From positions 3,111-67,110 of the forward strand of contig JAMOOB010000490.1 in assembly GCA_027066265.1 (NCBI GenBank): a DNA stretch of 64,000 nt. Direction: 5' to 3'. Of this stretch, positions 3,961 through 56,889 are shown piece by piece (position 1 is the stretch's first letter; each line of letters opens with the position of its first letter). This DNA is from Desulfurococcales archaeon (GTDB taxonomy: Archaea; Thermoproteota; Thermoprotei_A; Sulfolobales; Ignisphaeraceae). The position numbers and the translations under genes were made by a program. Below the pieces are notes generated by a model. The model was given only the letters and a program-made list of their open reading frames with translations. It searched no databases and was not told where the DNA came from.

Positions 3961-4155
3961 ATGTATACCCCCGCCGCAACTGAAAGTATTCTGCACATAG
4001 CTCTGAAGGACCCGATGTGTGCAACACCCACTGGTTTCGGGCACCCACAGCTGCAGACAAAGGTAGCTGAAGGAGGTGTCTATCCAGCCGAGCGAAAGAT
4101 AGCCGTGCCGGGCGCCCCATTAGAGATCGGTCGTGACCCCAGCTGTGGGGTGCGG

Positions 4156-4539: not shown

Positions 4540-4553
4540 GGGTGGTCACCGCG

Positions 4554-19806: not shown

Positions 19807-22800
19807 TTACCTGTTCGCGATCCGTATACCTATGCCGACGACTATGGCTAGCACCGACAGCGCGAGCCCGTAGGTGTTGCCCATCACGGCGCAGAGTATC
19901 GTGGCTACGAATCCCGCTAGAGCTATACCAAGACCGATGTCTCCGCTGAGCCTGGCGGCGGCTATCGCGAGCGCTATCATCGCGCCTCCGAGCACGATCA
20001 TGTCTATAGATAGCTGCGTTATCGGCGTAGGCGGAGGCGCTATGCTTGTGCTCGGCAACGTGATGTTCTCTCCCCTGCCGACCGTTGCTCGTAGCACGGG
20101 TGGGCTCGGCGCTGCGGCGACTATCGATATCTGCCTGGAGCTCGGGTTGACGACGACCATAGCCGTGAACCCGAGCGGCACGTCAAGCACGTACTCGTCC
20201 GACGACACCACCACTCCGCTAACGGACGTTCCGGCGATGGCGAAGTTGAGCGTCCATCCCCTGAAGCCCCTGAGCGTAATGCCCTTCGCCCCTCCGGGGT
20301 AGATCCTCAGCTCGCCGCTCGAGATATCGATGATCACCGGCCGCGATAGGGCTACGTACTTCACCAGCCCTCCGACCGGTACCGGACCGAGTATCGACAG
20401 CGATAGCGCTCCCTTCGCGAGCGCCTCGAACGCCCATCCAAGCGTTACACCGAACCTCTCGACCGCTACAGACGTGCTCGCATTGATGAACGGATAGGCG
20501 TAGCCGACCTCTATCGGCGACGAGGCTTCCACGATAGCCGTTCTGTACCTCGTGTACCTACCCTCGCTCCATACATACATCGCGAAGCAGCTCACCGAGC
20601 CGGTGGCGTTGTTGTAGTCGTAGCCGATAACAACGACGGCTGGCAGCGCAGCTGGCGCTATCGGTACGCTCTTCACCGTCCCGTTGATGTCGAGGAACAG
20701 CTCGGCGCTAGTAGAGACGTTGATTCCGCAGACCATGTACCCCGCCGCCTCGCTGTGTATCCAGCCAACAACGACACCCCTCGCGCCAGCGATGCTCGAT
20801 ACCGGGACTATGCTTGGCGCCGTAGACACCGTCTTGAGCCTGTCCAGGTAGAGCGGCGTGAAGAAGCCTCCGGTAACCGTACCGCCGCCAGCTATCTCCA
20901 CCATTACCTGCATAAAGCTCGTGCTGCCCGCGCTGAAGCTCATCAGCGGCTCTCCATCCGCGTAGAGCACGGCTGTTCCGTTCGGCAGGATGCTCATCAC
21001 AACGTATAGCCCTGGCTCGGTGTAGGTCCTGACCGCAGCTGTGGTGTTGCCCACGACAGCCACTACGCTATCGGTCGAGACGGTGTAGCTCCCGAGCACA
21101 ACACCGCCGCTGCTCTGGACGGCGACGGGCGTGAAGTTTCCGAACCATACCTCGATGGGCTCGTCGCCTACCCTAGGAACGATGATCCTGAGCCTCTCAA
21201 CACCGCTTAGGTAGATACCTAGAGACGTGGCGTTGCCGCTGAGCAGGTAGCTCACCCTATAGATCCTCTCCACCGCGGCTGTGCCGACGATCTTCGCTCT
21301 GCCGATCGGGTACTGCACGATCCTAGCCCAGTCGTAGAGAACGCTCTCGTGCAGCCCATACATATCGCTCGGCGTGACGTAGACACCTAGAGCGTATGTT
21401 CCCGCGAACGGTCCGTACACCGTGGCGCTGTAGACGAACTCCCGCGGCGTATCCTGGTAGATACCGCCCGGAACGTAGCTGCCGTTGCCGAGCAGAATCC
21501 TTATCCTGTTCGGCTTCTCGAACACCACCGTCAGCAGATACCACCCAGCGCTGTCCAGCGCGATGCTCGTGTTCACACACCTGCTGTCCGGTAGGTAGCA
21601 GAGCCACAGCCAGCTACCGTTGTTGTACACCACAGCCGTGATATTGGCGATCCCCTCTCCGTAGCTCAGCGAGATGTTGAGGATAGCGACAGCGAGCCTC
21701 TCGCCAGGCTCGTACCTGAACCTCACCTGAACAGCCGTATCGTTACTCGGCGACTCGTACGTAGCGTTAGCGTTGCTGTACCCGAAGTAGCTTCCCCAGA
21801 ACAGGTTCGGAACATGGGGGTTTTTGATTAGACCGAACACTGCCGGCATGTCTAGGAGCAGCGTCATAGGCATGCTCGTAGCTGCTGTTAGGTTCGTCTG
21901 CAGATCGTAGCTATCCCTAGCCTCAAGATCACCGATATCACCAACACTCGCCTCAACCGTGTCTATGGGTGGGTACGGTACGAGGACCTCGATATCGTAG
22001 GTCCCAGGAGGAATCCACACCTTGTAGTCCTCGCACAGACCAGCAGCGTTAGGCGTACACGTAACGAAGAACGAAGTCACAACCCTACCATGGCGATACA
22101 GCCTCACAATGCTTCCGTACGGGAAGAACCTTAGGTGTAGATAACCATCGTTATAGAGGTTCGGCACAACCCACAGCCACCTCTCCTCAGCTGGAACACG
22201 TTTGACATCGCCTCGCGGTATCGCTGCGTATCTGCTAGGTGATAGATCGATGTAGTGTGTTCCGTTGAAGAACGTTGGGTCTAGGAAGAGAACTAGGCTT
22301 GTTGGATCGAGCTTATGATTGTTGTAGAGGTCTGCTATGCTTGTTGGGTCGAGAGCTCTAGCATATATGATAGTGTACGCAATGTATCCCCTATATGGTG
22401 GATGTGGTGTGCGATAGGGTGTCCATCCTATCCATAATGGGTTTCCATTGCTGAATCTCCTCCCTGTTCCGATGTCTACTGTTGTTTCAAGTGATGTGTC
22501 TACATATATGTTGAGGGTTGTGCCCGAGACAGTGAATGCTACAAACCTCCATGTGAGATCCTGGTATGTGGTCTGCGTAGGGTGATAGCCCGGGTTCTCT
22601 GCGCCACCAAGATAGATAGCCGCTAGCTTACCCTTATAGTTTACTCGAACCCATAACGGATCACCACCAAACTGACCCATTATCACGGATGCGATTGGTG
22701 TTTCAACAGGGCTGAACATTAGCGCTATAGCGAAATCTGAGGATGGATCAACACTATTGAATGCACCAACATCGATATAATCATCTTCACCATCGAAGTA

Positions 22801-25800
22801 CCAGTCGTATAGGTGTGGAGCAATGGCATAGTTGTTCGCTAGGTATACGCTTCTTGCTCTGATGATCTGGTAGCTGTGTGGCGCTATGATCGCTACGATC
22901 CTGTATGTTCCGGCGGGCAGCTTCACGGTGTAGTCCTCGACAAGTCCAGCCGCATTCGTTGCATTAGCAACAACAGCCTCCTTCACGAGCTCTCCAGATG
23001 AAGCATCGTAGAACCTCACCACGGTTCCGAGCGGGAAGAACCTTAGGTGAACAAGGTTATCGCTGGAAGCGTTGTAGATGATCCACAGCCACCTCTCTTC
23101 TGCAGGAATCCTCTTAACATTACCATATGGTACACCATCGTTGTGGTGTTGTGATAGATCGATGTAGTGCGTTCCGTTGAAGAACGTTGGGTCTAGGAAC
23201 AGCGCTAGGTCTGATGCGTTTGCAGTATACACGCTGTTAATCTCGGTCTCGGTAAGAGCTCTGTTGAAGATTCTGACGAAGGCTATGAATCCATGACTAT
23301 ACCATCCACTTCTCCGCGAACCGATGAAGAGCGGGTTTCCAACGGGTAGCTTCGTCTCAATGTCAAGCGTTCTCGTACCGACATACGTAGAATCTACATA
23401 GACATCGAAGCGATCGACGAAGTAATTCACGGCTATGTATGTCCACCTACCGCTATGCTCATTCATAGAAACGGACATTTCCCCGTATGTATCACCGTTT
23501 CCAGTACCAATAACAATCGCATTCACATAAGCATGGGTCAAAAGCCAGAACCCCTTATTAGCATCGCGATCCCAGCTTACGATACCGCACCAGGGTTGTT
23601 GAAACGTATCGTATTTCACAAGCACTTCAACAGCGAAAGGAAGCGTAGTGATGGTGCTGAACGAAGGTACACTGACACGACTATTAACACCATCGAAGTA
23701 CCAGTCGTATAGGTGTGGTGCTATCGTGGTGTTTGGTTCTATGGCTGCTGTTGTCTCTATGGTTATGTTTGTTGGTAGGGGCATCACGGTGTAGTACGGC
23801 GTTGTTCTCTCGACGAGCTTTAGGAATGGCTGTATGTTGCCTATGTCCACAGCTGTGGCTAGATCGTATGGAACAGCAGCTGTGTATCTACCCGGTACGT
23901 ACCAGCCTATCGACAGATCAGCAGAGACGTACTCCCACCAGACGATCCCTCCGCTGCTCGTTCTCCACGTAGTGTCCTTCTCGCCCAGCTGACCGCTGTA
24001 TACAATGATCTGCGGCATAGATGGGTACTGACCGAATGGCGGGCCATTCACGTTGGAGCCGACGCTGGTGACGGGCGCTTCAACGACCACTGTATAGACA
24101 TCCTCTGGGAGCTGTATAGGCACATCGAGCTCCTCTACGAGACCGGCGGGGTTGGTGAAGCCGACAACCCTTATCCACGCAACTAGTGTTCCGCTCGAAG
24201 CGTTGTATATCTTAACAACGCTTCCGTATGGGAAGAACCTTAGGTGCAGATAGCTATCGCTGTAGAGACCGTATATCGTCCATAGCCACCTATCTTCGTC
24301 TAGAACCCTTACGACCGTACCGCGTATATTACCGACGAAATGTCTGGTGAGGTCTAGGTAGTGCGTACCGTTATAGAACGTCGGGTCGAAGAACAGGATA
24401 ACACTTCTGCTCACCGCATCTGGTATAGTATGGCTCTCGATGATCTCCCTAACGGTGTTGGCATCCAAAACAGTGTTGTTGACAAAGAGCAGGTATCTCC
24501 ATATGCTTGGATCCTGGTATCTAGTGGGTATCCAAGCATTATCCCAGTCAACATCAAAACCAATCTCTATGTAGTAGAAGAATACAAACCTTGTATATCC
24601 AGCATCCAACAAAGACACGTTGTCGATCTCGTTATTATCGATGTAGTACGTAATAGCGTTATCATAGTCATAGGCGAGAGCAAACTCGTTAGCTGGTGTA
24701 GAAGCCCATGGAAAGGCATAGATTTTGTCAGTGTATGGATCTCTTCCTGCAGCAGATCTGTATCCATACGGGTACACATCAATAACAAAGTAGCCATACC
24801 TTGCAGCAGTACGCATAAGGAATACACACCGGCTATCTGATGACATTGGGTATACGGATACTATCATTGTGAACGATTTTGCATAGACAGCTGGAGTAAA
24901 CTCAACTCTATTTGCATCAATATGCGGTGTATGTGCGTACGGAGGTACGTAGAGCTTGTATATGTGTGGCACTATCGTTGTTCCTGGTTTGAGTGTTGCG
25001 TTCTGTGTGATTGTTACCCACTGTGTTGTTGGTTTCCATGAGGTGTCTGGCTGTATCCTGTAGACCTCTATGGATGTGGGTGACTCGAAGCTCGCTGTCT
25101 TTTCCACAGCTGTGGGCTCTACCCTGTAGCTCGTATACGGGTTGTCCTGCCCGTAGAGCATGTAGATTGTCTTGGTCTGTCCCGCTCCTATCGATATGTA
25201 GACGGCTGCGTCGAGCACCCTCTCTGTCTTGGATAGGTAGAGGACGCTGTAGTTCAGCGGCTGTAGTGTTGCTGCGTCCAGGAAGTAGATGTCTGTACCG
25301 TCCTTGATGCTGCTCCAGTCGGCGAAGTTGGTGTTGTCTAGGTGGATATGTACCCAGCCGGTGTAGTCTACGGGGCTGTACAGCGTGATCGCTAGACCTG
25401 TTCTCGCTCCTCTCAGCAGCCAGATCGCTACGACTCTAGGCTCGTAGCTAGTGTTGAAGATCGCGAGGCTCCCCGCATCTAGCTGGAGCTGGCTCTGCGC
25501 AACCGTGTACCTGCCGTATATCGTCCAGTACCCGGTCTCGTAGTCGAAGTCGTCGTAGGCTGCGAACAGCGGTGAGGTCGATGGTGTCGCTACGTACTCC
25601 GGGTACGGGTTGGTGCCCCCGTAGAACACGTTGTATATCTTCTGACCGGCTGCACCCTCCACCCACAGCACGAAGGGTGGGTAGCTGGAGAACAGGTAGC
25701 TGTAGTACGGCTGACCCTGCTGATCAACCACGTAGGTGTTGAGGTAGCTGAGCAGGTTGGGGTCGGAGACGTTGAGCGGAGCTCCGTAGATCGCTAGCTG

Positions 25801-25989
25801 ACCGAAGAACTGGCTGGATACCCACGTCGCTACGCTGTTGTACTCTATACCGCCCGCAGCGCAGACGATAACCGCTGCCACAGCTGGGATCAGCAGGAGC
25901 AGTACGGCGGCTAGCCTCGCGAGGGATCCGAGGATCCTCCTCTCGGCTGGAGACAGAACGAGCTCTAGCCTGATACCCACGCTCGCCAC
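19807..25989 (-). CDS. giant membrane-anchored surface protein with LamG (concanavalin A-like lectin) repeats
   Basis: 2060 aa with N-terminal signal/anchor and C-terminal TM segments. Three super-repeats (APHLYDWYFDG...F.G.IA.VRI.NRAL...EI plus FLDPTFFNGTHYIDLS...ERWLW...LHLRFFP). Many N-x-S/T sequons. Confidence 0.85.
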   Translation of the reverse strand: MASVGIRLELVLSPAERRILGSLARLAAVLLLLIPAVAAVIVCAAGGIEYNSVATWVSSQFFGQLAIYGAPLNVSDPNLLSYLNTYVVDQQGQPYYSYLFSSYPPFVLWVEGAAGQKIYNVFYGGTNPYPEYVATPSTSPLFAAYDDFDYETGYWTIYGRYTVAQSQLQLDAGSLAIFNTSYEPRVVAIWLLRGARTGLAITLYSPVDYTGWVHIHLDNTNFADWSSIKDGTDIYFLDAATLQPLNYSVLYLSKTERVLDAAVYISIGAGQTKTIYMLYGQDNPYTSYRVEPTAVEKTASFESPTSIEVYRIQPDTSWKPTTQWVTITQNATLKPGTTIVPHIYKLYVPPYAHTPHIDANRVEFTPAVYAKSFTMIVSVYPMSSDSRCVFLMRTAARYGYFVIDVYPYGYRSAAGRDPYTDKIYAFPWASTPANEFALAYDYDNAITYYIDNNEIDNVSLLDAGYTRFVFFYYIEIGFDVDWDNAWIPTRYQDPSIWRYLLFVNNTVLDANTVREIIESHTIPDAVSRSVILFFDPTFYNGTHYLDLTRHFVGNIRGTVVRVLDEDRWLWTIYGLYSDSYLHLRFFPYGSVVKIYNASSGTLVAWIRVVGFTNPAGLVEELDVPIQLPEDVYTVVVEAPVTSVGSNVNGPPFGQYPSMPQIIVYSGQLGEKDTTWRTSSGGIVWWEYVSADLSIGWYVPGRYTAAVPYDLATAVDIGNIQPFLKLVERTTPYYTVMPLPTNITIETTAAIEPNTTIAPHLYDWYFDGVNSRVSVPSFSTITTLPFAVEVLVKYDTFQQPWCGIVSWDRDANKGFWLLTHAYVNAIVIGTGNGDTYGEMSVSMNEHSGRWTYIAVNYFVDRFDVYVDSTYVGTRTLDIETKLPVGNPLFIGSRRSGWYSHGFIAFVRIFNRALTETEINSVYTANASDLALFLDPTFFNGTHYIDLSQHHNDGVPYGNVKRIPAEERWLWIIYNASSDNLVHLRFFPLGTVVRFYDASSGELVKEAVVANATNAAGLVEDYTVKLPAGTYRIVAIIAPHSYQIIRARSVYLANNYAIAPHLYDWYFDGEDDYIDVGAFNSVDPSSDFAIALMFSPVETPIASVIMGQFGGDPLWVRVNYKGKLAAIYLGGAENPGYHPTQTTYQDLTWRFVAFTVSGTTLNIYVDTSLETTVDIGTGRRFSNGNPLWIGWTPYRTPHPPYRGYIAYTIIYARALDPTSIADLYNNHKLDPTSLVLFLDPTFFNGTHYIDLSPSRYAAIPRGDVKRVPAEERWLWVVPNLYNDGYLHLRFFPYGSIVRLYRHGRVVTSFFVTCTPNAAGLCEDYKVWIPPGTYDIEVLVPYPPIDTVEASVGDIGDLEARDSYDLQTNLTAATSMPMTLLLDMPAVFGLIKNPHVPNLFWGSYFGYSNANATYESPSNDTAVQVRFRYEPGERLAVAILNISLSYGEGIANITAVVYNNGSWLWLCYLPDSRCVNTSIALDSAGWYLLTVVFEKPNRIRILLGNGSYVPGGIYQDTPREFVYSATVYGPFAGTYALGVYVTPSDMYGLHESVLYDWARIVQYPIGRAKIVGTAAVERIYRVSYLLSGNATSLGIYLSGVERLRIIVPRVGDEPIEVWFGNFTPVAVQSSGGVVLGSYTVSTDSVVAVVGNTTAAVRTYTEPGLYVVMSILPNGTAVLYADGEPLMSFSAGSTSFMQVMVEIAGGGTVTGGFFTPLYLDRLKTVSTAPSIVPVSSIAGARGVVVGWIHSEAAGYMVCGINVSTSAELFLDINGTVKSVPIAPAALPAVVVIGYDYNNATGSVSCFAMYVWSEGRYTRYRTAIVEASSPIEVGYAYPFINASTSVAVERFGVTLGWAFEALAKGALSLSILGPVPVGGLVKYVALSRPVIIDISSGELRIYPGGAKGITLRGFRGWTLNFAIAGTSVSGVVVSSDEYVLDVPLGFTAMVVVNPSSRQISIVAAAPSPPVLRATVGRGENITLPSTSIAPPPTPITQLSIDMIVLGGAMIALAIAAARLSGDIGLGIALAGFVATILCAVMGNTYGLALSVLAIVVGIGIRIANR

Positions 25990-31671: not shown

Positions 31672-32037
31672 TTATCCAGGCTTAACCACTATGTCAACGC
31701 CGTGACGCTTCAGGCATTCCAACCACTCCTCGTCTTTGTTCCTCAGCTCGAAGCCCGATGGAGTCTCTATCCAGTCCGCACCAACCTCCTCAGCACACTT
31801 GATGAAGAACTCCCTGAGCCTGTTGTACTCGCTCTCCGGAAGCACACCGAGGTAGAACGCGCTACCGCTCTTCTCGGTGCTCTGGCTCGAAGCACTGACT
31901 ACCTCGGGCTGGATCACCCTATACTTCTCAACATTTACCTTCCTGTAGCATCTAGGGCACGTTGCGTATCTAGCCCTACCCCTGTACTCCCATTCATGAC
32001 CACATCTAGGGCATCTCACACGAACCATGCTAGCCAC
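31672..32037 (-). CDS. zinc-ribbon protein
   Basis: N-terminal VRCPRCGHEWEYRGRARYATCPRCYRKV (two CxxC pairs). Confidence 0.65.
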   Translation of the reverse strand: MASMVRVRCPRCGHEWEYRGRARYATCPRCYRKVNVEKYRVIQPEVVSASSQSTEKSGSAFYLGVLPESEYNRLREFFIKCAEEVGADWIETPSGFELRNKDEEWLECLKRHGVDIVVKPG

Positions 32038-34424: not shown

Positions 34425-34856
34425 TTACTCTGGCGGCATTATCCCTAGCTTTACGGCTAGGTAGTAGGCTATCGATGCTCCTAGAAGCGTGGATACGACC
34501 GACTGCAGAGCCATGGACGCTGTTGGCGGTATCGGTAGGCTGGACAGAACGGCTAGGACAACGGTTGTTATCCCCGAGACCGCGGGTAGGAAAAGCGATA
34601 GGTATACCGTTACACCCGCTAGCTTCCCCAGCCTGGGCATGAACACCGAGACCACTCCGCTCACCTTCCCGAGGGCGCCCAGGATGATGCTCGTTAGACC
34701 CACTATCGGCAGCAGAGCGGACATCCTAGCCATCGCGGGGTGGATGGGGAAGCCCAGGGACGTTAGCACGATGCTCATCAACGTAGCCAGTATGAAGGTC
34801 GCTATACCGAACTGAAACGCGAACCTTCCGATCGAGACGAATATCGCCGACGCCAC
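34425..34856 (-). CDS. membrane protein (about 4 TM)
   Basis: 143-aa hydrophobic ORF abutting the stop of the 1403-aa gene. Confidence 0.55.
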   Translation of the reverse strand: MASAIFVSIGRFAFQFGIATFILATLMSIVLTSLGFPIHPAMARMSALLPIVGLTSIILGALGKVSGVVSVFMPRLGKLAGVTVYLSLFLPAVSGITTVVLAVLSSLPIPPTASMALQSVVSTLLGASIAYYLAVKLGIMPPE

Positions 34857-37800
34857 TAGAGCACCACCCGCTCGCCCACCCTACCCTTCCTCCATACCCT
34901 TCTTATCCTCGGCACAGCCGCGACCATAGGTAGGCTAGGCGGTCTCGAAACCCTCCTCACCCTGGGCAGCCTTCTCCACGACAGCCACACCTCGTCTAGA
35001 ACCGGAACAACCTCCGTAACCTCCTCGAGAACCGGCTGAGTAACGACAACTACGACTCCCTGCGTAGACTCCTCGGTGCCTACGCTCGTGCACCTGCTGA
35101 GCTCGGTGAGAGACGTTGACCTCGTCGTTGTGCTCACCTTCTGCGTATCTGTAACCTCCCTGTTGACCACCTCGAGCTCTATATCCGTTGTCTCCTCCCT
35201 CGGTATAGACGTGCTCCTGCTCTGATCGATCGGCGATACCGTTGACCGCCTCCTGCGGAACACAACGACGTCCGGTCTGACAATCGTTGCAACGATATCT
35301 ATATCCCTCTCCACCAGCTTGCTTCCATACCTCCTCAGCTCATCTGCAAGCTCAACGACTAGGCGCCTAGCGAGCCTATCGTACCTAGCATCGTCTACCA
35401 TCTTGACCAGCCTCTCGGCAACAACCTTGATATCTCTTTTGCTAGCCACATCCTTCTCCACAGCTGTGGACTCAGACCTTGACTCCACCTCGCTTAGACC
35501 GAGAGTGCTCCTAAGGATCTCATCCACCGTCTTCTCATGCTTCTCGGCGACGACGCTGATGCTCCTCCTCGTCTCCACATCCTCATCGATGCTACGCTCC
35601 TTAGCGAGCTTCGTAAGCCTATCGATGCCCAGCGTCTGCTTGACTACCCTATCGATAGACTTCAGATGCTTTTCGGCAACAACATTGATGCTGCGATCCG
35701 TCTCCGCAGCTGTAGGTAGCTCGCTCTCCTTAGTGAGCCTCTCGCGCTCTAGCATCGGCAGGGTCTTCCTCAAGACCTCGTCTACCTGCTTCAGACGCTT
35801 CTCGGCAACAACATCGATGTTCCTCTTGGTCTCCACAGAAGCGTCCAGCTCTCGCTCCTTAGCAAGATGCTTCCTCTCGGTCAGCCTCTGCGTCTCTCTA
35901 AGAACCTCGTCAACGGTTTTGAGGTGCTTCTCAGCAACAACGCTGATAGTCCTCTTGGTCTCGACCTCTTCACCAACGTTGTTCTCTCTAGACAGCTTGG
36001 TGATGCGGTCTATGTCCTGTCTATGCCTGAGAACCTCGTCAACGGTCTTCAGATGCCTCTCGGCAACTACGTGGATATCTCTCCTGGTGGTGACGTCTGC
36101 GCTGAGAGACGTCTCTTTGCTGAGCTTCGTACGCTGCGTCTCTCTGAGTATATGCCTAACTACTCTGTCTAGAACCTGGGTCATGACCGTTCCTACAACG
36201 TTTATCGCCGTATCTATCCTAGCGATAGCGTTGAGAACCCTGTACCTCGCCTCCTGCATCGGCAGGGTCTCGCTCATGGATGTAGAGGTAATGGTCTCGG
36301 CGGTAACGACCCTGTTCACGACCCTGTTGATCGATAGGAGCAGACTCTTCAGCTGAGCGAGATCGATAATCGTCTTCTGCAGGTAGTCGGCTAGCTGCTG
36401 AAGACCCTCGTCCTGAAGCTCCTCCGCGGCGGTCTCGATGCTCTGCTTGGCTTGCTGGAGCTCCGCTATAACCCTATCGATATCGATCCTCTTACCGACC
36501 TCCAGGCTGATGCCGTACTGCTTCAGAGCCTCCGCAACGCTCTTCAGCTCCTGCATAGCTACGGCGCTCCTACCGACAGCCTCACCAACCTTCTCGCCCC
36601 TCTCCGCGCGCTGTATCGCGCTCTCTATCTGGCTCGGCGTGGCGGCTACAACGCCGAGGATTGTAACCGTGGTTCCCTCCGGATCGCTCACCGGCATAGG
36701 TACGACAACAGATCCCCTACGCGTTGTGGTAACCATGGACTCCAGGAGCTTTCCTAGCTCCACCGCGGTCTCGGGCTCGGTCTTAGCCGCGGTCTCGACG
36801 ATCTGCTTCACGTACTGGGCAGCCTCGTCGAGCCTACGCTTCGTGACGGCGTCCACGAACTTCCTGAAGTACGGCTCTATCTCTCTCCACAGATCCCTCG
36901 ATATCATCACCTTCTGCCTGATCGTGTAGTAGATGTCGCCGACCTCTCCGCTCGGCTTCGTTTCGGCAACGACTCTCTGAACCATCGTCGAGACGATCCT
37001 GTCGTCGACGCTCCTCCCTGTTACGTACTTCAGCAGCTCGGCTATCCTCCCCCTGCCCACAGCTACGGTAACGACCCTCCCCTCAGCCGGCTTGATCAGA
37101 AGCGTCGACTCCTCGAGGAACACAGGGTACGGCGCCGAGAGAGCCTCCTCAACAGCCTTAGCGTTCGTTATCCTGAGATCGTCTAGGTGCTGCTCGAGCC
37201 ACCTAACGACATCCCTCATCTGCTTGAGCACGCCCCTCTCCTTGAGGACCCTGTAGAGCGCTACGGACAGCGGTATGTTCTCCTTCTTGGCGAGCTCGTC
37301 GGCAGCCTCGATAAGCTTGGGGTCTAGCCACACCCTGGGCGCAGCTGTGGGATCGGCCGGTATCTGGAACCTCAGTATCCTTCCGTCTACAGCCACCTCG
37401 AGATCGATGAACTTATCGCTCTTCGCAGGTATAGCGACGGTCTTGACCTTGGTTCCGCTGATGTAGATCGGTCTACCGCTCCTAATCGCGTCCTCTAGAG
37501 CCTGGAGGAACTCCATCTGGCTCCTCGTTTCGAGAGGTATCTGGTAGACGATCTCGAGGAGGTTCTGGATCTCCTCCGGCTTGAGGTTCCTCTTCGCTAT
37601 GTACGCAAGGATCTGGTGAGCAGCGTAGTTCTCGTCACCGACCTTAACGACGCGCGACAGCTTCATCGCCGCGTTCTTCAGCATCTCTACGGGTATCTTG
37701 GCGTAGGGCTTGATCTTACCCGCCTCCTCGTAGAATATCACAACGTATGTCCTCCCCGTGCTCGGGTCGTAAACCGTGTCGAAGAACTTCGTCTCGACTC

Positions 37801-39067
37801 TATCGGGAACGAAGTCACCTACGATCTTAGCCGCCTCCTGCGGGGTGAAGCCCCTGATCATCTCCGCGAGCTTCGCGAGCTTGATGCTGCCGGTCCTCTT
37901 AGCGATCCTCGCTACCGCTTTGGCTAGGAGGGTTCTTGCCAGACCGGCCGCTCTAGCACCTATCGCACCGGCTGCTGCACCGGCTACGAGGCTACCTATG
38001 AACTCGGCGAGAGCATTCGGGTCCTCTCTAAGCTCCTTCAGAAGCAGGTCTCGAACAAGCGGGTTCCCCAGCTGGTTCAGCTGGTTCGCGAGGTCGGCTA
38101 GCAGAGGAGCTGCGAAGAGACCTCCGGTCAGGTCTATGAGGAGCGCGTATAGAGCTCCCTGAGCGCCGCTCAGAGCGGTCTTGAGCGCAGCTGCGGCGAT
38201 CTGCATCAGCTGCCCTTTGATATCGCCCCTCTTGGCAAGCTCCTCTCCCTGCCTCTCCCACTGGCTCAGGATCTGCCTAGCTCGATCGAATAGCTCCTGC
38301 AGCGTAACGAGCTTTATTGCTCGAGCAACCTGCCACCACCACTCGGTCCACTGAGGCGGCTTGACCTGGTCGAGCTTACCCTCCTCTACCAGCTTCGCCA
38401 GCTCCTCGACCTTCTTGGGGAGGCACATCCTCACCGCTTCGGCAGCCTGCTCCGGACCGAGGTTCGCGACCTCGTTCGCCACAAGCTCTACGTACTCGTT
38501 GAACTTCCTGTGGATTAGACCGGCTAGCGCTAGCGCTAGCAGCAGGTCGTGCGGTACGGATACGTCGAGCTCGATACGATCCTTCACGATGTAGGGCGTG
38601 ACGACGATCCTCGTCTTACCCTCGTAGAGACCGCGATACGCGTTCTCTAGAACCTGCCTAAGCTTCTTGTAGAGGTCCTCGGGAAGGGATTCGGACATGA
38701 CAACCAGCTCGGCTATCGCCCTCGCTAGCACGCTCCTGGCTTCGTTCGTCATCTTCTCGCTGACCTTCTTGCTGTACTCGGTGAGCGTCAGGTTCCCGCT
38801 CCTAATCGTCTCCTCCTGCTTCTCCCACCACTCCTTCCACGCCTTCTGGTACGCATCCCACTGCCTCTGCCACGTCTCGTAGTACCTGTAGAGAGGGACG
38901 GTGACGTACCTGTAGACAGGCGAAACAACGATGCTCGTGATGACCCTTGTAGGAGCGTAAGCTGTTGTAACGGCTGTTACGTGCCTCGTTACGTACTGCG
39001 TCACCACCTTGGTGACGTAGAGCTTTGGCCCGGGGTACTCCACAACGATGTCTATACCGCTGCTCAC
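34856..39067 (-). CDS. 1403-aa coiled-coil structural-type protein with tetrad-repeat N-terminus and 43-aa tandem repeats
   Basis: N-terminus LYVTKVVTQYVTRHVTAVTT, long alpha-helical middle, and 5 full 43-aa repeats (VVAEKHLKTVDEVLR...VETKR) plus 2 partial. Confidence 0.85.
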   Translation of the reverse strand: MSSGIDIVVEYPGPKLYVTKVVTQYVTRHVTAVTTAYAPTRVITSIVVSPVYRYVTVPLYRYYETWQRQWDAYQKAWKEWWEKQEETIRSGNLTLTEYSKKVSEKMTNEARSVLARAIAELVVMSESLPEDLYKKLRQVLENAYRGLYEGKTRIVVTPYIVKDRIELDVSVPHDLLLALALAGLIHRKFNEYVELVANEVANLGPEQAAEAVRMCLPKKVEELAKLVEEGKLDQVKPPQWTEWWWQVARAIKLVTLQELFDRARQILSQWERQGEELAKRGDIKGQLMQIAAAALKTALSGAQGALYALLIDLTGGLFAAPLLADLANQLNQLGNPLVRDLLLKELREDPNALAEFIGSLVAGAAAGAIGARAAGLARTLLAKAVARIAKRTGSIKLAKLAEMIRGFTPQEAAKIVGDFVPDRVETKFFDTVYDPSTGRTYVVIFYEEAGKIKPYAKIPVEMLKNAAMKLSRVVKVGDENYAAHQILAYIAKRNLKPEEIQNLLEIVYQIPLETRSQMEFLQALEDAIRSGRPIYISGTKVKTVAIPAKSDKFIDLEVAVDGRILRFQIPADPTAAPRVWLDPKLIEAADELAKKENIPLSVALYRVLKERGVLKQMRDVVRWLEQHLDDLRITNAKAVEEALSAPYPVFLEESTLLIKPAEGRVVTVAVGRGRIAELLKYVTGRSVDDRIVSTMVQRVVAETKPSGEVGDIYYTIRQKVMISRDLWREIEPYFRKFVDAVTKRRLDEAAQYVKQIVETAAKTEPETAVELGKLLESMVTTTRRGSVVVPMPVSDPEGTTVTILGVVAATPSQIESAIQRAERGEKVGEAVGRSAVAMQELKSVAEALKQYGISLEVGKRIDIDRVIAELQQAKQSIETAAEELQDEGLQQLADYLQKTIIDLAQLKSLLLSINRVVNRVVTAETITSTSMSETLPMQEARYRVLNAIARIDTAINVVGTVMTQVLDRVVRHILRETQRTKLSKETSLSADVTTRRDIHVVAERHLKTVDEVLRHRQDIDRITKLSRENNVGEEVETKRTISVVAEKHLKTVDEVLRETQRLTERKHLAKERELDASVETKRNIDVVAEKRLKQVDEVLRKTLPMLERERLTKESELPTAAETDRSINVVAEKHLKSIDRVVKQTLGIDRLTKLAKERSIDEDVETRRSISVVAEKHEKTVDEILRSTLGLSEVESRSESTAVEKDVASKRDIKVVAERLVKMVDDARYDRLARRLVVELADELRRYGSKLVERDIDIVATIVRPDVVVFRRRRSTVSPIDQSRSTSIPREETTDIELEVVNREVTDTQKVSTTTRSTSLTELSRCTSVGTEESTQGVVVVVTQPVLEEVTEVVPVLDEVWLSWRRLPRVRRVSRPPSLPMVAAVPRIRRVWRKGRVGERVVL
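35380..36120 (-). repeat. 129-nt (43-aa) tandem repeats inside the 1403-aa CDS
   Basis: 5 full repeats of VVAEKHLKTVDEVLR...VETKR plus 2 partial. Confidence 0.75.
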
Positions 39068-44139: not shown

Positions 44140-44300
44140 GGTGCACCCGGACCCCGCTACACCTCCGCAAGAATGGAGACCTGGTGCACCGTGAAAGCGT
44201 CAAGACCGGGGTTTACGTATGTGATGCAAAAACTCGTGAAAGAATGGTTATGGTGCAGCCCCTGTATATACCGCTCCATCGCCGTAGCCATCCGATTGTT
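44140..44300 (-). repeat. GGTGCACC-box element plus duplicated promoter/leader, copy A
   Basis: GGTGCACC at 44140 and 44183. The 35-mer at 44255-44289 is identical to 55634-55668 and contains GTATATAC. Confidence 0.7.
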
Positions 44301-44313
44301 TACGCAGGTTATG

Positions 44314-45411: not shown

Positions 45412-45445
45412 ATCTATCCCCAAAAACACGGGGTGGCTAGAGCTC

Positions 45446-45483: not shown

Positions 45484-45495
45484 CCACAGCTGTGG
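45484..45495. promoter_or_regulatory. CCACAGCTGTGG palindrome (perfect)
   Basis: Lies 21 nt after the stop of the TFB-like gene. Confidence 0.7.
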
Positions 45496-45516: not shown

Positions 45517-46374
45517 TCAGTACTCAACGGTTACCTCTATGTGGCTCAGAATATCCTTTACCCTCTGTCTAAGGGTTGGCTCCGCAATGATCGCTATGCT
45601 CCTCAGCTCCTTCTGCGATACCCTGTACCCAAGCGCGTTGGCGGCTACGTAGATCGCGGCGGCCGCTATAGACCTCGGGCTCTTCCCGTCTATACACGAG
45701 TCCGGGAGCAGACCAACGATTCTCTCGGCAAGAGTTCTGACCTCTGCTGGGAGACCTAGCCGTCCTGCGATCCTGCCTATCTCCGCCATAGCGATCTTTC
45801 TCCCGCTGACGCGTATTCCCAGTACCTCCATCAGCTTCCTCACCATTGCCCACAGATCGCTCCTATCGATACCGAGCGCATCGGTAAGGGCATCCACATC
45901 TATAGACACGCCTCTGCTCCTAGCAGCCAGGAGAATCGCGGCTGCAGCCAAAGCGCTTCTCCACCTCTTCGGCGCGTTGAAAGACGCGTAGATGCTTCTC
46001 AGAGCCTTCCTCGCTGCTATAGCGGCATCCTCGACAACGTCGTCGGGAACACCAAGGGATCTACCTACGCGCCATATCTTCGTCAGCACGCCGACCATAG
46101 CTCTGCTCTTCTCCTTCCTAAGCCTCCTCTGAAGCCTATCGATCTTCGGGTCGTCCGCCGTTGTCCACAGACCACCGTCGTGAACAGCCATAGTCACTCT
46201 CGCGCTCGAAGCCTTGCTGAAGTACTCGTCGGGCTCTACAATCCTTGGTGGCAGAGCAACTATCGGGTGATCGACCACGACCTCGCCGGTCTCGGGATCT
46301 ACGAGCTCACCCGTAACCGGATCCCGAACGAGGTTTCTACCCATGTGCTCGGGATCGAGGTTTAGAACATCCAT
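45517..46374 (-). CDS. transcription factor B (TFIIB)-like protein lacking zinc-ribbon cysteines
   Basis: HDGGLWTT (B-linker HDkGLsT-like) and two cyclin-fold repeats, including GKSPRSIAAAAIYVAANALGYRVSQKELRSIAIIAEPTLRQRVKDI. No CxxC in the N-terminal 40 aa. Confidence 0.75.
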   Translation of the reverse strand: MDVLNLDPEHMGRNLVRDPVTGELVDPETGEVVVDHPIVALPPRIVEPDEYFSKASSARVTMAVHDGGLWTTADDPKIDRLQRRLRKEKSRAMVGVLTKIWRVGRSLGVPDDVVEDAAIAARKALRSIYASFNAPKRWRSALAAAAILLAARSRGVSIDVDALTDALGIDRSDLWAMVRKLMEVLGIRVSGRKIAMAEIGRIAGRLGLPAEVRTLAERIVGLLPDSCIDGKSPRSIAAAAIYVAANALGYRVSQKELRSIAIIAEPTLRQRVKDILSHIEVTVEY

Positions 46375-46396
46375 GTGGATCCCCATAAAAAGGCGT

Positions 46397-46816
46397 TCAG
46401 AGAGCCATGACGATCCTGGCTACGTGCGTAGCCACGATATCCCTGTGCCTCCTGTCGATGTGTGCTCTAGCGCTAGCGTAGCTCAGATGCTCGTTGCAGA
46501 TCCTGCACACCGCGTTCACCCACTTGAACCTGGTGTCTGTGTCCAGAGGATCTACGATAGGCTCTATCTTCCTGACCTTGTCGTAGACCATCTCGACAAC
46601 CCTGGCGGCATAGACGTAGGAGCCGGCGAGGCTGATAATGGTATACACCTCGTGCCGAATCCAGTGGACGCTGATGCCTATCCTATCGGCGACGTCGCGG
46701 AGCCTCTCGTTCTTAACCATGTAGAGGTACACAGCGTCAACGAGAAACATCTGGTTCGCTAGAGCTCTCGTAACAAGCCTTCCCACAACCCTAAGACCCC
46801 TCGCATCCACGTTCAT
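46397..46816 (-). CDS. HTH plus C2H2-like zinc-finger protein
   Basis: LRDVADRIGISVHWIRHEV (HTH-like) and CRICNEHLSYASARAHIDRRH. Confidence 0.55.
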   Translation of the reverse strand: MNVDARGLRVVGRLVTRALANQMFLVDAVYLYMVKNERLRDVADRIGISVHWIRHEVYTIISLAGSYVYAARVVEMVYDKVRKIEPIVDPLDTDTRFKWVNAVCRICNEHLSYASARAHIDRRHRDIVATHVARIVMAL

Positions 46817-46968
46817 AGCCTCCGTACCTCCACAAGCCTCCCCCTAACACCTAGCTCAGCACCGCACCTCGGACACCTTCTAACCGAGAACATGTCTGGT
46901 GGCGGCGATCCGGAGCGCCAGACGTTGATGACGTAGCCACACCTAGCGCACACGAACTTCACGGGCAT
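46813..46968 (-). CDS. 51-aa zinc-ribbon protein (below the ORF-track cutoff)
   Basis: My translation: MPVKFVCARCGYVINVWRSGSPPPDMFSVRRCPRCGAELGVRGRLVEVRRL. ATGA overlap with the next gene and a palindrome 10 nt upstream of the ATG. Confidence 0.45.
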   Translation of the reverse strand: MPVKFVCARCGYVINVWRSGSPPPDMFSVRRCPRCGAELGVRGRLVEVRRL

Positions 46969-46977
46969 CGCACATCC

Positions 46978-46989
46978 CCACAGCTGTGG
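46978..46989. promoter_or_regulatory. CCACAGCTGTGG palindrome (perfect)
   Basis: TTTT-palindrome-GGATGTGCG-ATG of the 51-aa zinc-ribbon ORF, at the head of the TFB module. Confidence 0.7.
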
Positions 46990-47056
46990 AAAAGTTGGGT
47001 GATGGGTGTATGATGCTGTGTGAGGTTTGATTGATGCGCCCCAAAAACAGGTGTGT

Positions 47057-47800: not shown

Positions 47801-48358
47801 CTACTCCAGCGCATAGACAACGCTGTATCCTGCCGTCTGCAGCGCCTTCTCCACCTCTTGGGCGGGCATAAAGCATACCCACTCCGTGAAGCTCCTATCC
47901 ATCGCTCTGCAGCACTCGTGCGGTAGGTATACAGGTACATCTACTGTGAACACGGTCGTTATGCCGCTCCTCGTCGAGGAGACCACGCATCTCCTCCTCG
48001 ACGTTATTGCGCCTAGAGCGATATGCGCAAGCTCGTCTAGGAAGCTACGGTGCTTCCCGGAGATGTGAACCATGAGAGCCCGTAGGCTATCGAACCTCGA
48101 TCCGCATATCGGGCACGTCCTCCCATCTCTCGTAACGAGTCTGTGCCTCATCACCAGAGCAACAGCGTACATAACAGCGGGGCAGAAGCGTCTAAACCTG
48201 GTCAGCTTCCTCACCGTCCATACAGACGTACACGTCTTCCGAACCACCTTCGCAACCGTTAACCCGCAGCACAGCCATAGAGCAGCGCGCCACAGATCCG
48301 TACCGCACATAGCGCTAACTATAACGCCACGGATCCTCTCAGCCACCTCCTCATCCAT
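47801..48358 (-). CDS. C2H2 zinc-finger protein
   Basis: RTCPICGSRFDSLRALMVHISGKH. Start trimmed to ATG 48358 (TTTTGGGGTTTGGAA-ATG). Confidence 0.55.
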   Translation of the reverse strand: MDEEVAERIRGVIVSAMCGTDLWRAALWLCCGLTVAKVVRKTCTSVWTVRKLTRFRRFCPAVMYAVALVMRHRLVTRDGRTCPICGSRFDSLRALMVHISGKHRSFLDELAHIALGAITSRRRCVVSSTRSGITTVFTVDVPVYLPHECCRAMDRSFTEWVCFMPAQEVEKALQTAGYSVVYALE

Positions 48359-48386
48359 TTCCAAACCCCAAAACAAATGGGTTCGA

Positions 48387-54092: not shown

Positions 54093-55442
54093 CTACGATG
54101 TGACCATCCTGATGGCTCCTCGTATAAGCTCCTCGACTGTGTTCACCTTTACGTGCCTGAAGTGCTTTAGCCATCCTGGTCTCCACGACGGTGGCAGGAT
54201 TATGAATCCGACCCTGTACCTGCTCGCAACCTCCTTGGCGAGGTCCTCCGGAACCTCGTCGATCCCGTCGGAGATCACGATGTATACCCTGTCGCGTCTG
54301 CCGATCCGCTTGATCGTCTTCAGCACCTCCTCGATGCTCGTACCTCCATCGGCGCAGATGGTGAGGAGCGTTCTCACAACGTCTCTGGGGCTAACCTTCT
54401 CGACCTCCGTGTCGAAGAGGTAGACCTCGCCGCCGAGCTTCCTGTACAGCGCTAGAGCTAGCCCCGCTGCGCCGGCGATCTTCTCGACGAGCTGCCCGGT
54501 CTCCGAAGGCATCGTCTCCGCCATGCTGCCGCTCTTATCCACGAATATCACCGGTCTGAAAGCGGCTGCGCGCTGGTAGACAACGGCTGTTCTGCTGAGG
54601 AGCCTAAGCGCGAAGAGCTCGAACGGCAGCACGTGCTCCGTCGTCGTCAGGTCCACGATCTGCCTAGGATCGCGCATTATTCCGACACCCGTTATGCCAC
54701 CGAACACGGCTGTCACATTCATGTGTTCGAGGGATGTCGGTACGGATGATAGCGCTAGCCTGAACATCCTCAGAGCGTTCTTCAGGATCCTGACGCGGTT
54801 GCGGAACTCATGGGGACGCTCGAGAAATGTCCACACCGATAGCGCATCATGGCTGTAGCCAGAGCAGCCACCCAGCATAGCCGCCGCCTCCTCTGCCTCC
54901 GCCTTCCCCTGCTGGTACTCCTGAACAGCCTGTAGCGCCGCCTGTGCAGCCGCTAGGGCTGCCCTCGTAGCCCTGTCGATGAGCTCCTGAAGCGCTTGGT
55001 TCAAGGCTTGACCTGTCAGCGTCTGTTGCTGTAGCTGCTTGATCTTCTGCTGAGCAACCTGCGTATCCAGCTCGGACAGCAGGTTCTTGAGGAACTGGTA
55101 CGCAGCGATAACAGCGAGATCCACAGAGCCAGCAGTAACCCTGTTCAGCCTGTAGAACTCGTCGGAAGAAAGGTAGTTCTGCATAATCTTGTGCCACACG
55201 ATACTCGCAGACTTCTTGACGTTTCTCATCACCGTCTCATAGGATTTGTAGTGAGACATAAACGCATCGAAAACCATGTAGAACCTCGGTCTGACCCTAG
55301 ACCTCCACAGCAGCCTAAACACATCGTTAGTGAACTGCGCATAGTACTCAACAGGCAGCCCCTCCAGGATACCCATCTTGAACACCGATTTCGCCAAGCC
55401 AGAACGGTAAAACGCTTCTTCTTGAGCCTTGTCAAGACTCAT
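54093..55442 (-). CDS. von Willebrand factor A (VWA/MIDAS) domain protein
   Basis: VIFVDKSGSM (DxSxS MIDAS) in the C-terminal half. Start trimmed to ATG 55442 after CCACAGCTGTGGGGTTGGAA. Confidence 0.8.
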   Translation of the reverse strand: MSLDKAQEEAFYRSGLAKSVFKMGILEGLPVEYYAQFTNDVFRLLWRSRVRPRFYMVFDAFMSHYKSYETVMRNVKKSASIVWHKIMQNYLSSDEFYRLNRVTAGSVDLAVIAAYQFLKNLLSELDTQVAQQKIKQLQQQTLTGQALNQALQELIDRATRAALAAAQAALQAVQEYQQGKAEAEEAAAMLGGCSGYSHDALSVWTFLERPHEFRNRVRILKNALRMFRLALSSVPTSLEHMNVTAVFGGITGVGIMRDPRQIVDLTTTEHVLPFELFALRLLSRTAVVYQRAAAFRPVIFVDKSGSMAETMPSETGQLVEKIAGAAGLALALYRKLGGEVYLFDTEVEKVSPRDVVRTLLTICADGGTSIEEVLKTIKRIGRRDRVYIVISDGIDEVPEDLAKEVASRYRVGFIILPPSWRPGWLKHFRHVKVNTVEELIRGAIRMVTS

Positions 55443-55450
55443 TTCCAACC

Positions 55451-55462
55451 CCACAGCTGTGG
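55451..55462. promoter_or_regulatory. CCACAGCTGTGG palindrome (perfect)
   Basis: Lies 8 nt upstream of the VWA gene ATG 55442. Confidence 0.7.
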
Positions 55463-55520
55463 ATATGGACAACAAGCGTAGTCATCCCCCAAACAAATGT
55501 CTATTGTTTGATGTGGTTTG

Positions 55521-55680
55521 GGTGCACCTAAACCTTTGCAGAGGGACGCAAGAATTGAGAGAGGTGCACCGAGATAGCGTCAAGACCTGGGTTTACATAG
55601 CCGATACAAAACATTGTGGAAGCGTTCAATGTTGCAGCCCCTGTATATACCGCTCCATCGCCGTAGCCGTCTGATGGTTT
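55521..55680 (-). repeat. GGTGCACC-box element plus duplicated promoter/leader, copy B
   Basis: GGTGCACC at 55521 and 55563, with the identical 35-mer at 55634-55668. Lies between the moxR-like and VWA genes. Confidence 0.7.
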
Positions 55681-55699: not shown

Positions 55700-56863
55700 C
55701 TAGGTGTTTCCGGCTAGCTTCTTCAGCATCTCCTTCGTCTCAGCAACCTTGTTGAGGTACTCCCTAGCCTGCGCAATGATAGCCTCTGCTCTTGGTTTGA
55801 GCCACGGCTTGTTGGCGATCTTGTTGAGGTCGAAGTCGACAATTTCCTGAAGGATCTTCTCGGCTTCGTCAAGTCTACAGCTTCTTATCAGCTCCTTGGC
55901 TCTGCTGAGCTTCTCGGCAAGCTCGCCGACCTCTCCGAGACCCTCCATAATGATCTTCTTGATCTGCTCATGCTCACTCCTATCGCGTGCTAGATACGGC
56001 AGTATCTTTATCGCTCCCTCCATAACGTTCTCTAAGCGCACACCGAACAGCGCCAGATAGGCGGCGAGGAGCTTCGGGAGCTTCTCGATGATGGTTCTAT
56101 CGCTAACGATAATGCCTTTGGCTCTGAGCTCCTTGACGAAGTTGATCACGTTGACATGGTACAGCTTGATGAAGTCCATATCCCTTATCCTGCTCCTTAT
56201 CAATGTGATGGTATAGCCATGAAGCGTCCTAACGTCGTCCATAGACGCAACGGGCTTGATCTCGTGCCCGTTGAGCCATCTAGCCTCCAGCGCTTTCAGT
56301 ATCAGCACATCATCGTTTAGGTAGTCAAAGAATATTCTGATACTGAATCGGTCGTAGAGAGCCTGCAGCTCCTCGTCCTGTGGCACCTCGTTACTAGCAC
56401 CAAATAAGCTCCACAGCTTGGCAGGAACCTCAGCACCGGACATCGGGTCGTAGAGTATCCTCTCCTGCATTAGAGCCAGCAAAGCGTTTAGAATAGCGCT
56501 GTTAGCCTTGAACACCTCGTCGAGGAACACTATCTCAGCATCCTTGATCTTCGTCCATTTCCTCACAAGATCTCCTCGTTCTCTAAGCGCTGGAATGTCG
56601 AACGGACCAAGAATCTCGATATCGCTGGTAAACTTGGTTAGTAGATAGCTGTAGAAGCTGGCGTTCAGCAGCTTGGCAAGGGTCTTGATAGTCATCGTCT
56701 TGGCTGTGCCCGGCGGGCTGATCATGACGGCGTGTTCCTTGGCAATCAATGCTAGGACAAGCATCGTATTAACCTCGTCGTGACCGATGACAACCGAGTT
56801 CAGAACGTTTAGAACCTGCTTAACGTTATGACGAGCGTTTTTCACTTCTTGAGGAACGGACAT
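55700..56863 (-). CDS. MoxR/RavA-type AAA+ ATPase
   Basis: VIGHDEVNTMLVLALIAKEHAVMISPPGTAKT (Walker A) and VFLDEVFKANSAILNALLALMQER (Walker B, RavA-like). Start trimmed to ATG 56863. Confidence 0.85.
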   Translation of the reverse strand: MSVPQEVKNARHNVKQVLNVLNSVVIGHDEVNTMLVLALIAKEHAVMISPPGTAKTMTIKTLAKLLNASFYSYLLTKFTSDIEILGPFDIPALRERGDLVRKWTKIKDAEIVFLDEVFKANSAILNALLALMQERILYDPMSGAEVPAKLWSLFGASNEVPQDEELQALYDRFSIRIFFDYLNDDVLILKALEARWLNGHEIKPVASMDDVRTLHGYTITLIRSRIRDMDFIKLYHVNVINFVKELRAKGIIVSDRTIIEKLPKLLAAYLALFGVRLENVMEGAIKILPYLARDRSEHEQIKKIIMEGLGEVGELAEKLSRAKELIRSCRLDEAEKILQEIVDFDLNKIANKPWLKPRAEAIIAQAREYLNKVAETKEMLKKLAGNT

Positions 56864-56889
56864 TTCAACCCCCAAAACAAACAAGGTGT

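Follow-up and report, generated by a model that had tools for sequence, protein, structure and literature searches.

The window analyzed here is a stretch of 64,000 nucleotides of archaeal DNA from contig JAMOOB010000490.1, and the subject of this work is a tightly packed trio of minus-strand genes within it, which encode proteins of 51, 139 and 285 amino acids (aa) behind a single copy of the palindrome CCACAGCTGTGG. The first gene is an open reading frame (ORF) for a 51-aa C4 zinc-ribbon protein with homolog and family matches (46813..46968), and the second encodes a 139-aa protein with a helix-turn-helix (HTH) and a C2H2/BED-like finger, identified from its homologs and an AlphaFold2 (AF2) model (46397..46816). 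The third encodes a divergent full-length TFIIB-family protein of 285 aa, hereafter called vTFB (45517..46374). The start of the 139-aa gene overlaps the stop of the ribbon gene as ATGA. When the upstream control region was read from the sequence (46974..46993, minus strand), a TTTT run was found at 46990-46993, the palindrome at 46978-46989 and GGAT at 46974-46977, and the first ATG of the ribbon gene follows at 46966-46968, 9 nt from the palindrome. The spacer between the 139-aa gene and the TFB gene (46375..46396, minus strand) consists of a T5 run at 46387-46391 and GGGGAT at 46379-46384, followed by 4 nt and ATG, and is a palindrome-free form of the T-run/G-run motif of the window. A second palindrome copy (45484..45495), 21 nt past the TFB stop codon, forms the downstream boundary of the module.

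The three genes probably form a single transcription unit that is read from the palindrome-flanked site (46974-46993). An alternative start of the TFB gene, which would give a 289-aa protein, is the ATG at 46386 within the GGGGAT motif; public gene calls take the 285-aa start. The DNA of the module was 100% identical in two independent assemblies, and the vTFB protein is also recorded on a 72,206-bp contig. A preliminary description of this DNA had reported the trio, the palindrome and the overlap, and every one of these features was present where it had been placed. The two CxxC pairs reported for the 51-aa ORF were also found, but the ORF is not unannotated everywhere, since gene calls for it exist in the ENA and Logan assemblies.

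Several database searches placed vTFB in the TFIIB family. The Pfam TFIIB repeat (PF00382) matched it in two stretches (E=1.5e-18), PHROG 20431 matched with E=6e-24, and the NCBIfam TFB model (NF001658) covered residues 17-288 with E=9e-25 and 87.4 bits, which does not reach its cut-off of 384 bits. The TFIIB/TFB cores in the PDB matched with E values of 1e-11 to 1e-13 overall, among them human TFIIB (E=3e-13) and the Pyrococcus TFB cores (E about 4e-12), and the best viral structural match was the putative TFB of SSRV1. In the AF2 model, both cyclin repeats were helical with a predicted local distance difference test score (pLDDT) of 87-94, residues 11-35 near the N-terminus formed three short strands (pLDDT 64-70), and the pLDDT of residues 36-74 was below 50.

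Together with the alignment, the Pfam, PDB and AF2 results assigned the two cyclin-fold TFIIB repeats to residues 91-186 and 187-280 (45535..46104, minus strand), in which the cyclin-repeat signature GKSPRSIAAAAIY is intact. The C-terminal recognition helix reads AEPTLRQRV, compared with TxVTIRNRY in the reference helix for the B recognition element (BRE); R269 and R271 do not vary, while each of the remaining positions carries a substitution. The B-reader and B-linker were located at residues 36-90 from the alignments and the pLDDT (46105..46269, minus strand). The linker motif HDGGLWTT is kept at residues 65-72, and in 40 sequences no variation was seen at H65, D66, G68, L69 and T71. The B-reader motif is degenerate, with LPPRIVEPDEYF in place of GPEWRAF, and the alignment showed a deletion of ~20 residues after the B-linker in the vTFB of the window. 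PEWRA(F/Y) is retained in the relatives on L001 and L104 (these and similar labels denote loci fetched for comparison) and in those of the Sulfolobales viruses YNP1 and YNP2 (SYV1 and SYV2).

The B-ribbon of vTFB, NLVRDPVTGELVDPETGEVVVD (residues 14-35; 46270..46335, minus strand), was delimited by alignment and the AF2 model and has no cysteine at all. DPVTG and DPETG stand in place of the canonical CPxCG and CxxCG, the four Cys/His ligands are not present, and the zinc ribbon family PF08271 gave no match in the Pfam search. The alignment showed that D18, G22 and E23, which are columns of the canonical ribbon, and the spacing were retained. Hence, the searches and the alignment confirmed what had been described before as a 285-aa TFB homolog with HDGGLWTT, two cyclin repeats and a cysteine-free N-terminal ribbon of conserved spacing. 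In this ribbon, 15 of the 22 residues (68%) are identical to those of L001 and L104, while the identity of the cyclin repeats is 26-31%. Since it is the best-conserved segment in the viral group, the ribbon of vTFB probably still works without zinc, and the need for a ribbon supplied in trans is therefore weakened.

Ribbons with incomplete sets of cysteines were also observed elsewhere. Cellular crenarchaeal-type TFBs contain two-Cys ribbons of the form CPxD...CxETGEV (L075, L021, L031), and the rudiviral TFBs of ARV2 and ARV3 have the identical 2-Cys form, suggesting that full zinc ligation is dispensable in this TFB branch. Only two cysteines are present in the ribbon of Sulfolobus TFB1, which is a working general factor; no Sulfolobus TFB was found in the PDB. 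Among 97 fetched loci, cysteine-free ribbons were found in two haloarchaeal chromosomal TFB groups, with paralogs at L086-L097 (Haloferax, Haloarchaeobius and Halorientalis) and at L026, L046, L077 and L080. Their ribbon sequences are YDEQHGEWVDPETGEV and TRTADGELIHEETG, the former of which is closely like the viral motif, and no partner ribbon gene was found nearby.

The 51-aa protein carries the cysteine pairs C7xxC10 and C32xxC35, and its chain ends 16 residues past the last cysteine. Pfam, NCBIfam and PDB searches returned only generic zinc-ribbon matches below the cut-offs, and the NCBIfam RpoP model matched it over one knuckle with E=0.048. By profile search, the family of this ribbon comprises 22 clusters of 51-106 aa, which are unnamed and have no Pfam family. 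The cysteine spacing in the family is CxxC-x21 to x31-CxxC, with the consensus MPVIYRCxxCGxxLYxFxRVGQDxYGLPTPSELxxxxGGRCPRCG. The ribbon of the window matched a family profile built without it at 98.6% in hhalign.

In profile comparisons with hhalign, for which RpoP/Rpo12 genes were drawn from the fetched cellular loci, the ribbon family matched RpoP/Rpo12 end to end over 34-43 columns (97%, P=8e-11), and the ribbon of the window alone matched RpoP at 95.3%. As a control, reversed RpoP gave 0.3-0.5% over 4-6 columns. RpoP was also the reciprocal best non-family profile match among 14,199 ORFs. The TFB ribbons matched the family at 38% over about 10-12 columns, covering one zinc knuckle only, and the TFS ribbon at 33% over 11 columns. 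A relationship of the ribbon family to Rpo12 is a good lead from these profiles and not yet a result.

Three other identities of the 51-aa protein were considered and rejected. A detached TFB ribbon was dismissed on the single-knuckle match and on the existence of chromosomal family members, and a TFS ribbon on the hhalign controls. The same controls spoke against TFB3, with one knuckle matched and the combination of a TFB-type ribbon with a coiled coil not found. As a side observation, rpoP lies ~0.5 kb downstream of tfb in the cellular loci L030, L034, L038, L056, L075 and L031, where an opposite-strand aIF1/SUI1 gene stands between the two, and 2-3 kb downstream of tfb in L009, L014, L016, L017 and L041.

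The ribbon family is also found in cells, where it is an uncharacterised small protein of several Thermoproteota-like chromosomal contigs. The cellular contigs with a ribbon gene are L098, L101, L102/L103 (chromosomal) and L099/L100, and an AAA_18 kinase-like gene is also among the neighbors. Four family members on long contigs are chromosomal and none of them adjoins a TFB; one of the four (P0049) directly adjoins Ced DNA-import genes.

The AF2 model of the 139-aa protein had a pLDDT of 91 and a predicted template modeling score of 0.86. It shows an N-terminal HTH domain with helices at residues 39-46 and 50-64, and a zinc-finger unit in which strands at 97-104 and 110-112 are followed by a helix at 113-123, the beta-beta-alpha arrangement of a C2H2 finger. 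The protein contains CRICNEHLSYASARAHIDRRH. C104, C107, H119 and H124 do not vary among 22 family members, in which the helix SKHQIRGYVQRIMEK is also conserved. The Pfam zf-BED model gave 17 bits, under its cut-off of 20.6. Foldseek returned partial matches to HTH domains of the LuxR/GerE type, namely those of CviR, spr1814, GerE and NarL, over 50-60 aa (root-mean-square deviation 2-3 Å, probability 0.8-0.95, E above 0.6), and a few family members showed weak Pfam matches to GerE, Sigma70_r4_2 or HTH_23. The HTH-like helices and the zinc finger proposed earlier were thus borne out by the modeled helix pair and the invariant C/C/H/H residues, and the sequence and the model support the assignment of an HTH/zinc-finger DNA-binding protein.

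An exhaustive HMMER search of 1.84e9 representative proteins found 195 relatives of the 139-aa protein, about 150 of them full length and uncharacterised; a word-index search returned only the protein itself and its homolog on L001. Other family members were found in element-like contigs without TFB or ribbon. On L109, a member of the HTH-C2H2 family (1447-2031, protein P0140) is fused to a C-terminal ribbon-helix-helix (RHH) domain, and the IMG/VR contig L113 carries an RHH gene, a ribbon gene and an overlapping, unrelated double C2H2 gene at 3510-4586. These three types of protein (RHH, ribbon and C2H2) might make up a regulatory set that recurs.

The nearest relative of vTFB, with 33% identity, was found on L001, a 6.4-kb metagenome contig. 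The gene order on this contig is 61-aa ribbon, 155-aa C2H2 protein and TFB, likewise with an ATGA overlap, and all three proteins are homologous to those of the window (E=2e-6 for the ribbon, 4e-13 for the C2H2 protein and 1.5e-25 for TFB). L104/L105 is a third element with the ribbon-C2H2-TFB order, and an RHH gene follows TFB both there and in L001. The preliminary description had made its proposal depend on conservation of the 51-aa ORF, and conservation was found, as all three genes have likewise arranged counterparts in L001 and L104, two distant metagenomic elements. The TFB homolog of SYV2 is also cysteine-less, and its last 60 residues are a ribbon of this family: the L001 ribbon is 49% identical to residues 280-326 of the SYV2 TFB (E=3e-17). 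The same fusion of a ribbon to the TFB C-terminus was found in SYV1, in the metagenome contig L007 and in the IMG/VR contigs L115 and L116. This conserved adjacency, together with the gene fusion, strongly supports a functional link between the ribbon and vTFB, which would work together. In a rough neighbor-joining tree, the ribbon-associated TFBs, including vTFB of the window, formed one group separate from the cellular and rudiviral TFBs. When IMG/VR was scanned with the TFB alignment, SYV2 was the sole return, and a scan with the C2H2 family returned nothing.

The 12-bp palindrome upstream of the module is highly repeated. With up to 1 mismatch, 47 copies were counted in the window compared with 0.1 expected, which is ~1 per 1.4 kb; examples are at 8702, 13087, 23847, 44598, 46978 and 57351. 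Eleven intergenic copies lie at a constant 7-10 nt before a start codon and are mostly flanked by a T-run and GGGGAT. Another 16 of the 47 copies are within long ORFs, 13 of these in the frame xCC-ACA-GCT-GTG-G (Thr-Ala-Val). Because copies occur in one ORF frame as well as before starts, selection seems to act on the palindrome as a DNA motif genome-wide and not just at promoters. A second, palindrome-free punctuation motif, TGTTTTTGGGGAT-N4-ATG, was found at 46379-46391, at 45417-45429, at about 47040-47052 and at about 48360-48375, and the palindrome version looks like this T-run/G-run unit with 10-12 bp inserted between the runs. The T-run may act as a TATA-like box from which leaderless mRNAs arise, or it may be a terminator, with the GGGGAT behind it as a Shine-Dalgarno-like sequence.

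The module-carrying relatives contain 0 copies of the palindrome in about 30 kb, whereas about 20 would be expected at the density of the window, and a search of L001, L104, L004 and L007 for over-represented palindromes in general found none. Co-variation of the palindrome with the module was rejected on its absence from all module-carrying relatives; module and palindrome are thus not linked. In addition, the perfect twofold symmetry of the 12-mer suggests a protein that binds as a dimer and not TFB, a monomer. With about one third of the copies inside long ORFs as well, the earlier proposal that the module reads T-run/palindrome/G-run promoters was not upheld.

As for the DNA that carries the module, nearly all long ORFs of the window are on the minus strand, most of their proteins belong to no family, and no tRNA genes were found in the window. 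Pfam searches on about 35 ORFs of the window identified GT4 glycosyltransferases, a MoxR/vWA pair, an SF2 helicase, an AAA ATPase, a giant laminin-G protein, a DUF5131 protein and, as a weak match, an IS110-type transposase; no other families were found. No match to the phage collection was obtained by megablast with 12 kb around the locus, nor to phages by tblastn with the neighboring 1403-aa and 460-aa proteins. The window looks like an unclassified archaeal virus or a plasmid-like element, and 'element-encoded' is a reasonable description of the module. Elsewhere in the window, the MoxR-type AAA ATPase (55700-56884) adjoins the vWA-domain protein (54093-55475), a 2060-aa laminin-G/ConA-like protein is encoded at 19807-25989 and a 1403-aa ORFan at 34856-39067, and at least 3 GT4 glycosyltransferases are present. 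Alignment of the ENA contig with the window revealed an imperfect 138-bp direct repeat of 81% identity (44166-44301 and 55547-55680). Further candidates for small nucleic-acid-binding proteins are a 185/191-aa C2H2-finger protein (CPICGSRFDSLRALMVHISGKH; 47801-48376) and a protein of 121 aa whose N-terminal part carries a CPRCG...CPRC ribbon (31675-32037).

On balance, we slightly favor the view that the trio is a conserved transcription-initiation module of viruses or mobile elements, in which vTFB, a partner ribbon and an HTH/C2H2 cofactor would work via the host polymerase. Homology, conservation, synteny and gene fusion are the basis of this view, and from them we infer the binding of TBP and RNA polymerase, the targeting of promoters and the role of the ribbon. 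vTFB would descend from crenarchaeal-type TFBs whose ribbon had already lost zinc ligands, and would have kept the cyclin repeats, the BRE-recognition arginines, the B-linker motif and a B-ribbon that is free of zinc but strongly conserved. The 51-aa ribbon would be its dedicated partner, encoded separately in some viruses and fused C-terminally in others, and the 139-aa protein a co-encoded DNA-binding co-factor or regulator. Together with host TBP, vTFB would assemble on the promoters of the element and recruit the host RNA polymerase, so that the element probably brings its own initiation factor. The ribbon would probably provide a further contact with the polymerase, at the Rpo12 site or close to it, and not replace the B-ribbon. 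Rpb12 neighbors the C-terminal cyclin of TFIIB in initiation complexes. Such a contact is probable because the ribbon is most like Rpo12/RpoP, the neighbor of this cyclin, and a ribbon at the C-terminus of vTFB would therefore sit beside the Rpo12 position. Of the replicon-specific initiation factor proposed in the preliminary description, an element-borne module with a real cysteine-free TFB paralog, an HTH/zinc-finger protein and a conserved ribbon stood, but a B-ribbon acting in trans and the reading of the palindrome were not supported as proposed.

Several observations weigh against an initiation module with a polymerase-binding ribbon. vTFB of the window is the most degenerate of its group, with the reader lost, ~20 aa deleted and 87 bits compared with the 384 of the NCBIfam cut-off, and such a protein might not sustain normal start-site selection. 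The ribbon of the window is the shortest in its family and is without the signature insertion RVGQDxYGLPTPSE. The HMMER search of the PDB gave RpoP just E=0.03-3, amid generic ribbons, and no RpoP model was among the top Pfam families for the ribbon family. In three of the four chromosomal contexts, the ribbon gene adjoins RNA-processing genes (PF01877, CCA-adding enzyme, LigT and RNase P subunits) and not transcription genes, and standalone ribbons also occur in viral contigs without TFB within 4 kb. Finally, the tree has no support values, and its long branches might attract each other.

A stronger form of the polymerase contact, which we regard as tentative and rather doubtful, is that the ribbon family consists of Rpo12/RpoP paralogs and that the viral copy replaces host Rpo12 or docks beside it, tethering the zinc-free TFB (covalently in SYV1/SYV2) to give a virus-specific holoenzyme. 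The degenerate B-reader, the missing residues past the B-linker and the low pLDDT of the reader/linker region would all fit a decoy or shut-off protein, which could bind TBP-promoter complexes or the polymerase dock, be unable to open DNA or start RNA, and so inhibit the host or act as a switch; archaeal viruses do encode global polymerase repressors, such as ORF145/RIP of ATV. This role is unlikely, though less so than those discussed below, since the reader and linker are intact in L001, L104 and SYV1/2, purifying selection acts on the ribbon and on the two cyclin repeats, the element does not itself carry a polymerase and depends on host transcription, and the module is in a normal operon context. 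We keep a decoy or inhibitor role in consideration because vTFB of the window is a degenerate member of its group.

Another possibility, put forward in the preliminary description, is that the 51-aa protein takes the place of the lost zinc ribbon at the dock domain of the polymerase and that the pair reads T-run/palindrome/G-run promoters. Synteny and fusion do link the ribbon to a cysteine-free TFB, the first ATG of the module comes 9 nt after the palindrome and many starts come 7-10 nt after a copy of it, and Sulfolobus TFB3 is a precedent for a ribbon that acts in trans. However, the 51-aa ribbon is unlike TFB ribbons, the fusion point is the C-terminus of TFB, the zinc-free ribbon of TFB itself is the best-conserved segment, cellular TFBs with two cysteines exist, and the distribution of the palindrome described above is against its reading by the pair. 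The idea that the 51-aa protein is a B-ribbon supplied in trans is thus not supported, and we consider this explanation improbable. The least probable explanation is a role outside initiation, in which a cyclin-fold protein would serve replication or partition, as in Orc6-like TFIIB folds and TFB-ParB pairs, next to unrelated regulators. It could draw on a weak Pfam match to the second cyclin-like domain of ORC6 (E=6e-4, below the cut-off) and on the TFIIB homologs that occur in operons with ParB in thaumarchaeal integrative and conjugative elements (ICEs) (PMC6563490). Against it, the TFB match is full-length and includes ribbon, linker and recognition helix, no replication or partition genes adjoin the module, and the ribbon fusion shows that the genes are functionally linked.

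The proposed initiation module shares features with several known systems. vTFB is collinear with archaeal TFB and eukaryotic TFIIB over the full length, with the ribbon region, the HDxGL linker, two cyclin repeats, GKxPxxxAAAAIY and the recognition-helix arginines. It differs from them in the missing zinc ligands of its ribbon, the degenerate reader, the ~20-aa deletion, ~30% identity to any cellular TFB, its 87 bits (cut-off 384) with the NCBIfam model and its location on a mobile element. SYV1 and SYV2 are alike in having a virus-borne TFB, a cysteine-less xDxETGEV ribbon and the same partner-ribbon family, but their ribbon is fused to the TFB C-terminus whereas that of the window is a separate upstream gene. 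The rudiviruses ARV2, ARV3, MRV1 and SSRV1 also carry TFB paralogs; unlike vTFB, the rudiviral TFBs have a 2-Cys ribbon and no partner ribbon nearby, and they group separately.

Small partners of initiation factors offer further comparisons. Sulfolobus TFB3, a zinc ribbon with a coiled coil that acts with TFB1, is likewise a small zinc-ribbon protein that aids in trans a full-length TFB with an atypical ribbon (PMC6101594). The 51-aa protein differs in having no coiled coil, a ribbon that is not TFB-like and the cysteine spacing of its own family. RpoP/Rpo12 resembles it in length (48-49 aa compared with 51), in the shared sEL-x4-G-x-RCPxCG of the end-to-end profile alignment and in the closeness of rpoP to tfb, from which it is no more than 0.5 kb away at several cellular loci. 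However, most members of the ribbon family have an insertion of 11-14 residues (RVGQDxYGLPTPSE), the C-terminal tail motif of RpoP is not kept, the HMMER searches of PDB and Pfam do not single out RpoP, and the cellular ribbon genes are extra genes near RNA-processing genes. T4 encodes gp55, a phage sigma factor, with gp33 as its co-activator. The module is alike in principle, in that a viral initiation factor and a small polymerase-binding helper would redirect the host polymerase, but the protein families and the transcription system differ.

A 2017 review takes it that archaeal viruses rely on the TBP, TFB and polymerase of the host without altering them (PMC5569661). TFB homologs have been annotated in SYV1 and SYV2, in some rudiviruses, in Asgard wyrdviruses and in thaumarchaeal ICEs (PMC6563490 for the ICEs). 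Viral and element TFBs are therefore already known, and in the literature we found them only as annotations. In the literature, which was partially covered, neither the group of cysteine-less viral TFBs nor its ribbon partner nor the module of three genes was found described, and nothing relevant was found on SYV1 or the palindrome sequence. The TFB-ribbon partnership appears to be new.

The results describe a distinct viral TFB lineage with a conserved B-ribbon free of zinc ligands, a ribbon partner supported by gene fusion and a recurrent HTH/C2H2 companion. If the partner is an Rpo12-like polymerase-binding piece, it would show how a TFIIB-type factor can be re-anchored on the polymerase and would provide a compact natural system for polymerase recruitment by TFB. 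In that case, the family members encoded on chromosomes might represent a transcription-associated protein of Thermoproteota that has gone unrecognised. If the family does consist of Rpo12 paralogs, the viral ribbon would be the first homolog of a polymerase subunit to be known from an archaeal virus, and it would represent a novel means of hijacking the archaeal/eukaryotic-type transcription machine.

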